Numbered from the stretch's first letter, positions 15,619-23,757 are shown. The stretch is DNA of 64,000 bases from Escherichia coli (GCF_003790525.1 NZ_CP033634.1), one strand, 5' to 3'. Notes: a model not told the origin generated them from the letters alone. Translations and numbers: made by a program.

Positions 15619-15866
15619 CTCAGCTCCCGGCCGGGCAAGCCCGTCACTCTCCGACCGCCGAACCGCAGGTTGTCATTGACTGGCTGGCCAGAAGCTGGGG
15701 CTGGTTGCTCTCTGTGATTTCATTTTTGCACGTTTCAGGCAGTGCTGTATTCGTCTCTGGATACAGATCCGATCATCTTCCTGAAGGTAGTTCAGCAGCA
15801 ATTCCTGCCAGCGTGCAGCGGCTCTGCGCCATAATCCCCGCTGTTCGAGCTCTTCAGCTTTTTTAT

Positions 15867-15904
15867 GGGGAGCCCGCAGAATTCGGAAAAAATCGTACGC
15901 TAAG
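15867..15904. repeat. 38-bp terminal inverted repeat at the tnpA end (GGGGAGCCCGCAGAATTCGGAAAAAATCGTACGCTAAG)
   Basis: Tn501/Tn1721-type terminal repeat; the tnpA stop lies inside it. Confidence 0.85.
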
Positions 15905-18866
15905 GTTTTCCGGGCATCCGTAAGGGCCGAAACTTCCCGTCTTCCAGTCTGCGGCTCTGCCGCCAGACGTAATCGCCGGTTAGGTTGATGTGCTCCCAGC
16001 CCAGCGGCGACAGGAATTGCAGCAGCTCGCCGTCCACCGGCTTGCCGGCCTCGACCAACCCCTGGGTGGCGCGTTCCAGGTACACCGTGTTCCACAGCAC
16101 GATAGCCGCCGTCACCAGGTTGAGGCCGCTGGCCCGGTAGCGCTGCTGCTCGAAGCTCCGATCCCTGATTTCCCCAAGGCGGTTGAAGAACACCGCCCTG
16201 GCCAGCGAGTTGCGCGCCTCACCTTTGTTCAGGCCGGCATGCACGCGGCGGCGCAGTTCAACACTTTGCAGCCAGTCCAGGATGAACAGCGTGCGCTCGA
16301 TCCGGCCCAGCTCGCGCAGGGCCACGGCCAGTCCGTTCTGGCGCGGGTAGCTGCCGAGCTTGCGCAGCATCAGCGAGGCGGTGACGGTGCCCTGCTTGAT
16401 CGAGCTGGCCAGGCGCAGGATGTCGTCCCAGTGGGCACGCACGTGCTTGATGTTCAGGGTGCCGCCGATCAGCGGGCGCAACGTCGGGTAGGCTTGCACG
16501 CCCTGCGGCACGTACAGCTTGGTTTCGCCGAGGTCGCGGATGCGCGGCGCGAAGCGGAAGCCTAGCAGGTGCATCAGGGCAAAGACGTGATCGGTGAAGC
16601 CGGCCGTGTCGGTGTAGTGCTCCTCGATCCGCAGGTCGGACTCGTGGTACAGCAGGCCGTCGAGCACATAGGTGGAATCGCGGACGCCGACATTCACCAC
16701 GCGGGTGCTGAACGGCGCGTACTGGTCGGAGATATGGGTATAGAACAGCCGTCCCGGCTCGCTACCGTACTTCGGGTTGACGTGCCCGGTGCTCTCGCCC
16801 CGGCCACCCGCGCGGAAGCGCTGGCCATCGGAGGATGAGGTCGTGCCGTCGCCCCAGTGGGCGGCAAAGGCGTGGCGATACTGGTGGTTGACCAGCTCGG
16901 CCAAGGCCGCCGAATAGGTTTCGTCGCGGATGTGCCAGGCTTGCAGCCAGGACAGCTTGGCGTAGGTCAGGCCGGGGCTCGACTCGGCCATCTTGGTCAG
17001 CCCGAGGTTGATCGCATCACCGAGGATTGCGGACAGCAGCAACGTCCTGTCTTTGGCCTCGGCCCCGTCCTTCAAGTGGGTGAAGTGGCGGCTGAAGCCC
17101 GTCCAGTCGTCCACGTCCATCAGCAGTTCGGTGATCTTGATGCGCGGCAGTAACTGGCTGGTTTGGTCGATCAGCGCCTGCGCCCGATCCGGCACCGCCG
17201 CATCCAGCGGGGTGATTTTCAGCCCTGACTCGGTGAGGATGGCATCGGGCAGCTCGTTGTCCTTGGCCAGGCGGGTGACGGTGGCCAACTGCTCGTCCAG
17301 CAGCTGCAAACGCTCTTCCAGGTACTGGTCGCTGTTCGGGTTGATCGCCAGGGGCAGGGCCTGCTCGCGCTTGAGTGCGGCGAACTTCTCGGCCGGCAGC
17401 AGGTAGTCGTCGAAGTCGCGGAACTGCCGCGAGCCCTTGACCCAGATGTCGCCGGAGCGCAGGGCGTTCTTCAGCTCGGACAGGGCGCAGATTTCGTAGA
17501 ATTTCCGGTCGAGGCCTTCCGGGGTGATCACCAGCGGCTTCCAGCGCGGCTTGATGAAGGCCGTGGGTGCATCGGCCGGCACCTTGCGCAGGTTGTCGGC
17601 GTTCATCTCACGCAGGGTCTGCACGGCTGCCAGCACGCCTTGCGCGGCCGGCGCGGCGCGCAGTTCCAGCACCTCCAGCAAGGCCGGCGTGTAACGGCGC
17701 AGGGTGGCGAAGTTCTCGCCGACCAGGTGCAGGTGGTCGAAGCCTTCCGGCCGGGCCAGCAGCTCGGCCTCGCTGACGCTCTCGGTGAACTCGTCCCAGG
17801 GAATCACCGCCTCGATGGCGGCATAGGGGTCGCTGCCGCTTTCCTTCGCTTCCAGCAGCGCCTGGCCGATCCTGGAGTACAGGCGCACCTTGTCGTTGAT
17901 CGCCTTGCCCTGCTTCTGGAACTGCTGCTGATGCTTGTGCTTCGCGCCGCTGAACAGCTTGACCAGGATGCGGTCATGCAGATCGACCAGCTCATCGATC
18001 ACGGTCGCGGTGCTCTCCAGCACCACGGCGGCCAGGGTCGCGTAGCGGCGCTGCGGCTCGAACTTACCGAGGTCTTTGGGCGTCATCTGCCCACCCTCGC
18101 GGGCCAGCTTGAGCAGGCGGTTCTGGTGGATGTGCCGGCCCAGGCCTTCGGGCAAGTCCACCAACTGAAATGTCTTCAGCCGCTCGATGTGTTCCAGCAT
18201 GTGCCGAGAGTTGGGTTTCAGCGGTGCCTGGCGCAGCCAGGTCAACCAGGTGATGCTGCTGCCGGCCTTGAGCTTCAACAGCTCGTCCAGCTTGGCCCGA
18301 TGCGAGTCCGTGAGTGGTTCGACCAGGGCGCGGTAGACCCGCCGATTGGCTCGCGCAATGGCTTCCGAGCAGGCCCGGTCAATCACGCTCAGCGCCGGCA
18401 GGATGCGTCGTTTCTGCCGTAGGCTCTCCAGGGCCTGACCGGCCAGCAGCAAGCCTTTGTCGGTCTGCTGGGCCAGCTCGGTTAGCTCGCGCACCAGGGC
18501 GCGGAAGTCGGACAGGCCGAACGGGGCCAGTTGCAGGTAGGTGCGCAGTTCCTGGGCATGCTCGCGACGGGTCACGTCGCGCTCGCCGTACTTTGCCCAG
18601 CTCGCCGGCTCGGCCTGGACTTGCTTCGCCACCCACAGGATGACCGGCTCGGGCAGCTCGCTGTCGGTTCCCAGCGCGTAACCGGGGTAGCGCAGCAGGC
18701 AGAGCTGCACGGCGAAGCCGAGGCGGTTGGCGTCGCCGCGTCGCTGGCGGATCAGCGACAGGTCGGAGTCGTTGAAGGTGTAGTAGCGGATCAGGTCATC
18801 CTGGCTTTCCGGCAGCGCAAGCAGGGTGTCCCGCTCCGTGGCCGAGAGGATCAAGCGACGCGGCAT
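15900..18866 (-). CDS. tnpA: Tn3-family transposase TnpA
   Basis: 988-aa [47 protein letters not shown]... with a Tn21/Tn1721-type conserved C-terminus; high-GC segment. Confidence 0.93.
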
Positions 18867-18888
18867 GTGTCAGTCGTCCGTGCGGAGG

Positions 18889-22218: not shown

Positions 22219-23427
22219 TCAGAAGTGACCGTCCAGGCGGTCACCGAACTCGATAATAAAGCGGCTCATTGCCATTCGCCAGTCCTTCAACGGCATCGTC
22301 CATTTCTGGGACGCAGACTGGATTGCCAGCCACACCACTTTTTTCACCGAGTCGTCTGTCGGGAACACTTTACGCTTTTTGATCGCATGGCGGATCACGC
22401 TGTTTAGCGACTCGATGGCATTCGTCGTATAGATCACTTTGCGGATGTCCGTTGGATAAGCGAAGAACGTGGCAAGATTCGGCCAGTTAGCCTGCCAGCT
22501 TCGGCTTATCTGAGGATAGCGACTGTCCCAGGCCGCAGCGAACGCTTCCAGTGCCTGCTGACCTGCCTCTTCCGTGGGAGCCTGATAAATCGCTTTCAGG
22601 TCGCGAGTGACGGCTTTGTAGTCCTTCCATGACACGAAGCGCAGGCTGTTGCGCACCATATGCACGATGCATAACTGGATGCGGGCCTTCGGATATACTG
22701 TGTTGATGGCATCCGGGAAGCCTTTCAGGCCATCCACACAGGCGATGAGGATATCGTTCAGACCGCGGTTTTTCAGTTCAGTCAGCACATTGAGCCAGAA
22801 CTTCGCCCCTTCATTTTCGGCCAGCCACATACCCAGCAGTTCCTTCTGACCTTCGATATTGATGCCCAGTGCCAGGAACACCGATTTGTTGATGACGCGA
22901 CTGTCCTGCCGAACTTTCAGGACGATACAGTCAAGATAAACAATGGGGTAAACAGCATCCAGTGGTCTGTTTTGCCATTCTACAACCTGCTCCATCACGG
23001 CATCGGTGACCTTTGATATCAGTGCCGGTGAAACATCTGCGTCATACAGTTCTTTGAACGCAGTAGCTATCTCACGGGTGGTCATCCCTTTGGCATACAA
23101 CGAGAGGATCTGGTTATCCATCCCGGTAATACGGGTCTGATTTTTCTTTACCAGTTGTGGTTCGAAGGTACCGTCACGATCGCGCGGAGTACGCAGTTCC
23201 AGTGGACCGTCGCCTGTGATAACGGTCTTTGTGGAATAACCGTTGCGGGAGTTAGCTCCTGGTCTGGACTGATTTTTCTCATACCCAAGATGGTGTGTCA
23301 TCTCTGCATTGAGAGCGGCTTCAACGCTGAGCTTTTTCAGCAGCCGATCAAACTGACTGAGGTCTTCAGGGGTTTTGAGGTTTTTGGCCAGTTCGTTAGC
23401 CAGAGCCTGTAACTGTTTTTCGTCCAT
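22219..23427 (-). CDS. IS256-family transposase (IS1414)
   Basis: 402-aa [26 protein letters not shown]... with a mutator-type transposase core. Confidence 0.9.
22596..22712 (-). CDS. astA: EAST1 heat-stable enterotoxin, embedded in the transposase gene in an alternative frame
   Basis: Translation gives [38 protein letters not shown] (38 aa), the recalled EAST1 sequence; its ATG overlaps transposase codons D239-A240. Confidence 0.9.
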   Translation of the reverse strand: MPSTQYIRRPASSYASCIWCATACASCHGRTTKPSLAT

Positions 23428-23681
23428 AAATTAACCTTCATTTGATGCTGGATTGAACATATCAAAATCAGGCAATTACACAAATCTATGTACAGGCTCG
23501 GCAAAACAGTTTTGGGAAAAACGAGGATAACGCTTTTCAGTATCTCGACAGGGATAACTTACTTTACCATCGGTTATCCCTTTTAGCCGCACAAATTTTA
23601 GCCATGGCTTTTCAGGAAGTCAGGGCTATCAGAATGGCCTTAGAAAGCCTAGTCAAAGAGCTGTCACGAGAACACCGTTAG

Positions 23682-23719
23682 CTTAGCGTACGATTTTTTC
23701 CGAATTCTGCGGTTCCCCC
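23682..23719. repeat. 38-bp terminal inverted repeat at the mcp end (reverse complement GGGGGAACCGCAGAATTCGGAAAAAATCGTACGCTAAG)
   Basis: Inverted relative to the repeat at 15867-15904; followed by the TTTAT direct repeat. Confidence 0.85.
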
Positions 23720-23757
23720 TTTATCAGTAATCATATTCACCTCTGCTCTGGTCGGTC

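Follow-up and report, generated by a model that had tools for sequence, protein, structure and literature searches.

Organization of the locus

The window analysed here, a 64,000-bp stretch of Escherichia coli DNA (NZ_CP033634.1), carries a transposon of the Tn1721/Tn1722 type with intact ends and a heavily rearranged interior, lodged in a small PerC-family gene. Its features are listed below with strand, where one applies, and the basis of each assignment in brackets.

15673-15866, minus strand: main part of the interrupted PerC-family gene, from codon 4/5 to the stop, severed from its start codon and promoter (empty-site CDS, Pfam)
15862-15866: left target site duplication, TTTAT (direct reading, script)
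15867-15904, plus strand: 38-bp terminal inverted repeat, tnpA end, with an EcoRI site (GAATTC) within it (repeat search, script)
15900-18866, minus strand: tnpA, intact, encoding a 988-aa Tn3-family transposase, its stop codon within the terminal repeat (translation, NF033527, DNA identity)
18867-18888, minus strand: 22-bp remnant comprising the 3-bp tnpR-tnpA spacer and the last 19 bp of tnpR (alignment to L004)
18889-19708, plus strand: IS26 copy 1, 820 bp, with 14-bp terminal repeats and flanks TGCGGAGG and GTTAAAAG (repeat search, alignment, profile)
19709-19869, plus strand: internal 161-bp fragment of the transposase gene of IS5075, IS110 family (identity to annotated copies)
19870-20689, minus strand: IS26 copy 2, with flanks AAAACAAC and CTTTCGAC (repeat search, script)
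20690-22184, plus strand: mcp (orfI, PAS-domain methyl-accepting chemotaxis-like), without its first 60 bp (L004 identity, NCBIfam MCP and PAS matches)
22177-22184: left 8-bp IS1414 target duplication, GGCAAAAC (script)
22185-23499, minus strand: 1315-bp IS1414 of the IS256 family, whose transposase ORF (22219-23427, 402 aa) is intact (identity, NF033543)
22596-22712, minus strand: astA (EAST1 heat-stable enterotoxin) ORF inside the IS1414 transposase gene, 38 codons and stop (translation)
23500-23681, plus strand: right GGCAAAAC copy (23500-23507), last mcp codons (stop at about 23530) and untranslated transposon tail (L004 identity)
23682-23719, minus strand: 38-bp terminal inverted repeat, mcp end (repeat search, script, reference comparison)
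23720-23724: right target site duplication, TTTAT (direct reading, script)
23720-23734, minus strand: orphaned first five codons of the PerC-family gene, MITDK (script translation)
23824-24558, plus strand: intact gene for an AraC-family regulator (YdeO/GadX-like), separated from the transposon end by 104 bp (annotation, profile)

Transposon ends and target site

The terminal repeats, of which the left reads GGGGAGCCCGCAGAATTCGGAAAAAATCGTACGCTAAG, match each other at 35 of 38 positions by repeat search and script, with the mismatches confined to positions 5-7. The same two sequences delimit intact, annotated copies of Tn1722/TnAs1 (the minimal transposon of Tn1721, in the Tn3 family) in reference loci L001 and L004, the tnpA-end repeat is identical to that of the intact copies in L001, L003, L004, L010 and L011, and the 5-bp length of the target duplication is likewise shared. 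The original prediction had placed inverted 38-bp repeats at these coordinates with TTTAT on either side, and direct reading, repeat search and script all agree; the assignment to the Tn1721/Tn1722 type and the integrity of the ends stood up to alignment with reference elements.

An unoccupied version of the site is present in pPK8275-82kb, in which alignment places the end of the left flank at 4099 and the start of the right flank at 4095, so that TTTAT occurs once; the same 5-bp overlap of flank coordinates is seen in three other plasmids. The TTTAT pair is therefore a true 5-bp target duplication and not a chance occurrence, and the proposal that the original insertion is preserved is confirmed by this empty site. 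Since both ends are present, one-ended transposition is not needed as an explanation. An intact Tn1722 of an IncHI2 plasmid was considered as a possible sharer of the TTTAT duplication and ruled out, its duplication being TTGAT.

The transposed unit is of the minimal Tn1722/TnAs1 type, not a full Tn1721. It is the tnpA-end and mcp-end repeats that the duplication brackets, and the 64-kb window holds no tet module and only two copies of the repeat, whereas the full 11-kb tetracycline-resistance transposon has a third repeat beyond its tnpA end along with tetR-tet(A). A repeat of the tnpA-end type with tet(A) beside it is seen in pCP61-IncN and p94EC-1, but not in this element.

Loss of tnpR and res

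The tnpA reading frame runs for 988 codons with no internal stops, and its product scores 1289 bits against NCBIfam profile NF033527 (cutoff 500), in keeping with the earlier description of the gene as intact. The tnpA DNA, like the retained part of mcp, is 100% identical to the copy annotated in pE32-3 (for tnpA, WP_001138014.1, 'TnAs1 family transposase'). Against the intact 5,640-bp Tn1722 of L004, the tnpA arm differs at one position only, and the segments of mcp match at 100% identity (20690-22184 to L004 5792-7286, within a CDS of 5732-7309, and 23500-23681 to L004 7279-7460). The alignment of the tnpA arm ends at L004 4880, where tnpR occupies 4862-5422, and exactly 911 bp (L004 4881-5791) are missing: they comprise tnpR apart from its final 19 bp, the res region and 60 bp from the start of mcp. 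None of these sequences is found anywhere in the 64-kb window, inside the element or outside it, and the reference alignment bears out the claim that an inverted IS26 pair has replaced them.

Because tnpR and res are absent, the element is a defective derivative and not a complete member of the Tn1721/Tn1722 group; relative to Tn1722/TnAs1 it has also gained two copies of IS26, a fragment of IS5075 and a copy of IS1414. The native promoter upstream of tnpA appears to have been lost as well, and a crude consensus scan detected no sigma-70-like promoter at the IS26/tnpA boundary. With both ends and an intact tnpA, and with no resolvase, res or native tnpA promoter, the element could at most be expected to form unresolved cointegrates. 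It is a resistance-gene-free, resolvase-less remnant.

The IS26 pair and its spacer

The two IS26 copies are exact reverse complements of each other and 100% identical to annotated IS26, with a transposase that scores 275.6 bits against the NCBIfam IS6 family profile NF033587. Comparison of the flanks listed above reveals no 8-bp duplication around either copy; IS26 lacking such a duplication is expected after adjacent deletion or recombination and not after simple insertion. No direct or inverted relation pointing to a specific intramolecular event was found among the 8-bp IS26 flanks in the window and in pGZM7d. A 709-aa ORF at 20099-22228 is an artefact, an antisense reading that passes through IS26 into mcp.

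The 161 bp between the IS26 copies, whose identity was not part of the original prediction, match at 100% identity the interior of a pESBL-blaCTXM-55 CDS that bears the annotation 'IS110-like element IS5075 family transposase', as well as the truncated IS5075 copies of pGZM7d and p94EC-1; the longer IS5075 ORF in pGZM7d matches NF033542 with an E value of 3e-62. IS5075 is incomplete here, these 161 bp from within its transposase gene being all that remains, and the fragment is a leftover of a lost sul2/integron resistance region.

We note that both IS26/Tn1722 junctions recur across dozens of E. coli records, a point also absent from the earlier description: the junction of tnpA plus 22 bp with IS26 is identical in 45 records, and that of IS26 with mcp in 31. 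Because they are so widely shared, neither was necessarily made in this plasmid, and both were probably inherited or gained by recombination. The left junction was first assumed to be a new deletion from an ancestor resembling pGZM7d; with the junction present in 45 records, inheritance or recombination is no less likely.

IS1414 insertion into mcp

Apart from its first 20 codons, mcp is present at 100% identity, and it is split by IS1414 23-30 bp ahead of its stop codon. The octamer GGCAAAAC is doubled here and occurs once in pGZM7d, pQ65-C and intact Tn1722, all of which are uninterrupted at this position, as would be predicted from the earlier claim that IS1414 split the mcp 3' end with an 8-bp duplication. 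The insertion sequence has imperfect terminal repeats by repeat search, shares 99.7% identity with the pE32-3 element that carries the IS1414 annotation, and encodes a transposase scoring 428.8 bits against NF033543. It resembles known astA-carrying IS1414 in its IS256-family membership, intact transposase and embedded 38-codon astA, and differs in location alone. The astA ORF is intact and lies in a reading frame other than that of the transposase, and pE32-3 has astA annotated at the equivalent position; the embedding of astA in IS1414 has been described (McVeigh et al. 2000, as cited in PMC12585946). A role for pE32-3 as the ancestor carrying mcp::IS1414 was rejected, its annotation placing IS1414 elsewhere on the plasmid.

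Among 5,426 complete E. coli genomes, none contains the mcp::IS1414 junction and none contains the junction of the IS5075 fragment with IS26 copy 2, which makes these two events private to this lineage.

Effects on the interrupted gene and its neighbor

The location of the transposon in codon 5 of a PerC-family gene had been overlooked by the earlier description. The uninterrupted CDS is at 3906-4109 in pPK8275-82kb, and its product matches the Pfam PerC family (PF06069) with an E value of 5.8e-13. An ORF that begins within the transposon (GTG at 16095) runs in frame through the repeat into the PerC-family body, and the orphaned MITDK codons now run into the other repeat, stopping after 18 codons. 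For the host plasmid, the most direct consequence of the insertion is that this gene is interrupted at codon 5.

The AraC-like gene had been placed 38 bp from the element, a distance that holds for the longest ORF (ATG at 23758) and not for the start at 23824 annotated in pPK8275-82kb, pGZM7d and pE32-3, which is 104 bp away from the terminal repeat. With this start, residue 1 of the product falls on position 1 of the NCBIfam YdeO profile, in an alignment whose score of 203.7 bits is under the equivalog cutoff of 348. We regard 23824 as the most likely start, and with 104 bp of native upstream DNA retained, an effect on the promoter of this gene would be less likely than was implied. Near the right end, a crude consensus scan gave one weak and uninformative minus-strand promoter match overlapping the PerC-family start codon.

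Related structures

Neither PLSDB nor the 5,426 complete E. coli genomes contain a record with the whole configuration of this element, and the best whole-element matches (80-81%) have the same frame with other cargo. A sister plasmid, pGZM7d (NZ_CP129283.1, from E. coli of a chicken in China), is about 99.8-99.98% identical in backbone across the 64 kb outside the element, and shares the insertion site, the TTTAT duplication, the junction of IS26 with truncated mcp, and the IS26-IS5075 junction. Unlike the window, pGZM7d keeps 16.2 kb of DNA between its TTTAT copies, with tnpR, intI1-dfrA17-aadA5, sul2 and ISVsa3 among the contents, and has no IS1414; two segments specific to it (3,972 bp and 5,703 bp) are found nowhere in the 64-kb window. 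The insertion site and the tnpA-IS26 junction are also the same in pESBL-blaCTXM-55; a deeper cut of IS26 into tnpA in that plasmid, suggested by CDS coordinates, was refuted by alignment, which shows the same junction and, within tnpA, the loss of about 89 bp. Because the DNA shared by pGZM7d, pESBL-blaCTXM-55 and the present plasmid is all ~100% identical, the direction of descent among the three cannot be fixed.

At a second site, pQ65-C and pDETEC67 contain a frame that is shared with some 30-45 other E. coli records and has intact repeats and identical junctions of tnpA plus 22 bp with IS26 and of IS26 with truncated mcp. It differs from the element described here in its TATAA duplication in a DUF6685 gene, in the resistance cargo between its IS26 copies and in having no IS1414, and the cargo itself differs between the two plasmids, one having fosA3/blaCTX-M-14 and the other qnrS1, floR, tet(A) and sul2. 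Published Tn1722-based structures show a like truncation of tnpR/tnpA and mcp by IS26 (PMC4541600).

Evolutionary history of the element

The structure of the element, its unoccupied site, the related arrangements in sister plasmids and the spread of the junctions are observed directly, and the best explanation of them is very probably a succession in which a Tn1722 insertion acquired a resistance region, was gutted by IS26 and finally received IS1414. Tn1722 (TnAs1 in current annotation) would have inserted once, by TnpA-mediated replicative transposition, into codon 5 of the PerC-family gene of an F-type conjugative E. coli plasmid, duplicating TTTAT. Its interior would then have served as a landing pad for resistance DNA (a class 1 integron together with sul2/ISVsa3 and IS5075) with IS26 at its borders, as in pGZM7d. 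We infer an order and a mechanism for what followed, in which IS26-driven events, whether adjacent deletions, homologous exchange via IS26 and the Tn1722 arms, or both, stripped the resistance DNA along with tnpR and res and left 161 bp of IS5075 enclosed by an inverted pair of IS26 copies. The astA-carrying IS1414 presumably transposed into the mcp 3' end later.

An alternative is that an already gutted frame, without tnpR and res, moved as a unit into the PerC-family gene by its own TnpA, with host recombination resolving the cointegrate and pGZM7d regaining tnpR and the integron afterwards by recombination. The frame does retain tnpA and both repeats intact, it occurs with identical IS26 junctions, different cargo and a perfect TATAA duplication in pQ65-C and pDETEC67, and pESBL-blaCTXM-55 combines the same site with the same tnpA-IS26 junction. 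The same pattern would, however, also arise by homologous exchange, in which the tnpA arm (3 kb), the mcp arm (1.7 kb) and IS26 let resident Tn1722 copies swap interiors without transposition; the sample offers only two sites, and the native tnpA promoter is apparently lost with no replacement detected by the crude consensus scan. We consider this route distinctly unlikely. The broader notion that the resolvase-less frame is a still-mobile chassis, moved between plasmids by TnpA with host recombination in place of TnpR/res and carrying IS26-loaded cargo, of which the present copy would be the empty state, strikes us as rather doubtful; that the frame occupies two sites, one with a perfect TTTAT duplication and the other with a perfect TATAA duplication, agrees with it without amounting to proof.

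It is very improbable that the interior is an assembly artefact, produced when the 820-bp repeats formed by IS26 caused a resistance region to collapse. Such repeats are classic sites of misassembly, and among complete E. coli genomes the junction of the IS5075 fragment with IS26 copy 2 has no second example, but repeat collapse makes no new breakpoint inside IS5075, the exact IS26 terminus abuts unique DNA as in real IS26 deletions, and IS1414 is an independent insertion with a clean 8-bp duplication. That the two IS26 copies, which do bracket a short foreign segment, form a composite transposon inserted in an otherwise intact Tn1722 is scarcely credible, given that the outer flanks TGCGGAGG and CTTTCGAC show no direct 8-bp duplication in either orientation, that 911 bp of Tn1722 are gone between them, and that the outer junctions occur in many records with quite different cargo.

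A Tn1722 insertion later emptied by IS26 thus remains our preferred reading. All of the parts of the element were already known, and it is a real but ordinary scar of the evolution of an antibiotic-resistance region, of small importance beyond plasmid bookkeeping. It does provide a traceable case in which a Tn1722-based resistance region has lost every resistance gene via IS26 while the ends, the duplication and tnpA survive; were the gutted frame instead to have moved as a unit, it would be a still working vehicle for IS26-bounded cargo. The IS1414 copy places an intact astA (EAST1 enterotoxin) ORF on a conjugative plasmid. The insertion also disrupts a conserved small PerC-family regulator, the divergent neighbor of an AraC/YdeO-like regulator, and could thereby alter the regulation of the pair.

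Ends and target site of the element

Direct reading of 15700-24000 places the ends of the Tn1721/Tn1722-type (TnAs1) transposon exactly where the original prediction had them, and all of its coordinates for the element are upheld by this reading, by a repeat search (a 38-nt pair, 92% complementary) and by a script (35 of 38 positions match, with differences at positions 5-7).

Features of the element and its flanks (window coordinates)
15673-15866, minus: body of a PerC-family gene, parted from its own promoter
15862-15866: left TTTAT
15867-15904: left 38-bp terminal repeat, GGGGAGCCCGCAGAATTCGGAAAAAATCGTACGCTAAG, directly after the left TTTAT
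18889-19708: IS26 copy 1, exact reverse complement of copy 2
19709-19869: 161-bp segment, lying inside the IS5075 transposase CDS annotated in pESBL-blaCTXM-55
19870-20689: IS26 copy 2, exact reverse complement of copy 1
22185-23499: IS1414, with an intact IS256-family transposase of 402 aa
22596-22712, minus: intact astA (EAST1 enterotoxin) ORF of 38 codons, within the intact IS1414 transposase gene
23682-23719: right terminal repeat, inverted partner of the left
23720-23724: right TTTAT, adjoining the right terminal repeat
23720-23734, minus: orphaned start of the PerC-family gene, now reading 18 residues

When the left and right flanks were queried separately in PLSDB, they were found to abut in plasmid pPK8275-82kb, with the left flank ending at 4099 and the right flank starting at 4095; NZ_CP032880.1, NZ_CP023144.1 and NZ_KY689635.1 show this 5-bp overlap as well. 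Local alignment and direct comparison show that the unoccupied site reads ...CAGCTTTTTTATCAGTAATCAT... with a single TTTAT. The TTTAT repeats are a real target duplication, and this empty site is the classical proof of transposition.

Loss and gain within the Tn1722 backbone

The interior was compared with an intact 5,640-bp copy at 1859-7498 of L004, an IncHI2 plasmid whose annotation includes tnpA, tnpR and a PAS-MCP gene.

Alignment of the window to the intact Tn1722 reference
Window 15862-18888, L004 1854-4880: 1 mismatch, within the flanking pentamer, which is TTGAT in L004
Window 20690-22184, L004 5792-7286: 0 mismatches
Window 23500-23721, L004 7279-7500: 0 mismatches

The predicted Tn1722 identity is thus borne out, as the tnpA arm and the mcp segments match and only the pentamer differs. 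Absent from the element in this alignment are the 911 bp of L004 4881-5791, comprising all of tnpR but the final 19 bp, the res-bearing spacer between tnpR and mcp, and the initial 60 bp of mcp; no other occurrence was found throughout the 64-kb window. The tnpA gene is an open frame of 988 codons that scores 1289 bits against a Tn3-family transposase model, with a DNA sequence matching without a difference that of the gene for WP_001138014.1. Neither IS26 copy is flanked by an 8-bp duplication, and the 161-bp segment between them also matches the truncated IS5075 that adjoins IS26 in pGZM7d and p94EC-1. The IS1414 target duplication, GGCAAAAC, is the 8-bp overlap of the aligned blocks at L004 7279-7286. 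A 709-aa ORF at 20099-22228 (plus strand) is spurious, starting antisense in IS26 copy 2 and continuing into mcp; the pGZM7d annotation pipeline calls a 518-aa MCP whose start codon, an ATG at window 20651, falls within the end of IS26.

Comparison with a sister plasmid

Apart from the element interior, the whole window aligns at ~99.8-99.98% identity to pGZM7d, a plasmid with an F-type tra region from E. coli of chicken liver in China, which carries the same insertion with TTTAT at either side. Its repeats enclose 16.2 kb, in the order tnpA and tnpR, a DUF3330 gene, intI1-dfrA17-aadA5, IS26, truncated IS5075 and sul2, ISVsa3 and a recombinase gene, IS26, and truncated mcp. The window lacks a 3,972-bp pGZM7d block left of IS26 copy 1 and a 5,703-bp block left of IS26 copy 2; relative to pGZM7d, IS1414 is a gain. 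The element is therefore what is left, without any resistance gene, of a multiresistance region that had been built in a Tn1722 backbone.

Window position 47581 is position 1 of pGZM7d, such that the window crosses that record's arbitrary origin (47580/47581); if it otherwise matches pGZM7d, the source is a circular F-type plasmid of ~82 kb. Cross-matches in this alignment come from a 0.5-0.6-kb repeat in the leading/ssb-psiB region, whose three copies (42713-43338, 46042-46667 and 51489-52013) are 93-98% identical to one another.

Distribution of the junctions

The junction of the PerC-family gene with the terminal repeat occurs in two PLSDB plasmids, pGZM7d and pESBL-blaCTXM-55. The junction of tnpA plus 22 bp with IS26, counted as a single 120-bp match of ≥99% (100% among the matches listed), is present in 45 records (44 genomes) on several backbones and also in chromosomes, and the IS26/truncated mcp junction in 31 records (30 genomes). 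These counts indicate that both outer junctions are old and circulating, and homologous recombination, in the tnpA arm, in the mcp arm or in IS26, could have brought them into this plasmid. The IS26/IS5075 junction is common; among 5,426 complete E. coli genomes, none has the junction of the IS5075 fragment with IS26 copy 2 or that of mcp with IS1414. Two changes belong to this lineage alone: the trimming of IS5075 down to 161 bp and the insertion of IS1414.

Plasmid pESBL-blaCTXM-55 (NZ_OQ423473.1) shares the insertion site and the tnpA/IS26 junction and has an ~89-bp internal tnpA deletion at about 5763-5781. The alignment blocks there overlap by 19 bp; slippage between short repeats is suggested.

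Effects on neighboring genes

In pPK8275-82kb the empty-site TTTAT lies inside an annotated PerC-family CDS (3906-4109, minus), whose protein matches Pfam PerC (E 5.8e-13). The insertion falls at codon 5, and knock-out of this gene is its direct effect. An ORF from GTG 16095 inside the transposon crosses the terminal repeat and continues in frame into the PerC body; we note that in pGZM7d a fusion of this kind is annotated by the pipeline as a 'PerC family' protein of 114 aa.

The divergent AraC-family gene is YdeO-like (203.7 bits, below the equivalog cutoff). Its annotated start is at 23824 and the YdeO profile aligns from residue 1, which together indicate that 104 bp of native upstream DNA is kept. 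The 38 bp originally given as the distance to this gene holds for an upstream in-frame ATG at 23758 and not for the annotated start. An effect of the insertion on the promoter of this gene is possible.

Mobility and significance

In Tn3-family movement, TnpA acts at the terminal repeats to form a cointegrate that TnpR resolves at res. The element retains both repeats and tnpA. TnpR and res are gone, as is everything upstream of tnpA apart from 22 bp, and no promoter was found at the IS26 boundary by a consensus scan. TnpA, if made, could yield nothing beyond unresolved cointegrates, and one-ended transposition need not be invoked. We infer that the element is most likely an immobile or poorly mobile remnant. 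Alternatively, the resolvase-less frame (repeat-tnpA-IS26 and IS26-truncated mcp-repeat) may still move, with host recombination resolving the cointegrates. The frame is also found in pQ65-C (1504-11248) and pDETEC67 (3230-33584) with IS26 junctions identical to those of the window but, unlike there, at another site, with a TATAA duplication in a DUF6685 gene and with resistance cargo (one plasmid has fosA3/blaCTX-M-14, the other a multiresistance segment of 24 kb). This second insertion site is consistent with a mobile frame without demonstrating it.

All components are 99.7-100% identical to annotated elements, and IS26-truncated tnpR/tnpA and mcp in Tn1722-based structures are routinely described (PMC4541600). 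The whole combination has no match in the collections searched; the element is a trivial derivative, and the original prediction describes a real, ordinary structure correctly. As seen here, astA is embedded in IS1414 in published descriptions (PMC12585946), and its location there makes it a potentially mobile toxin gene carried by a conjugative plasmid.
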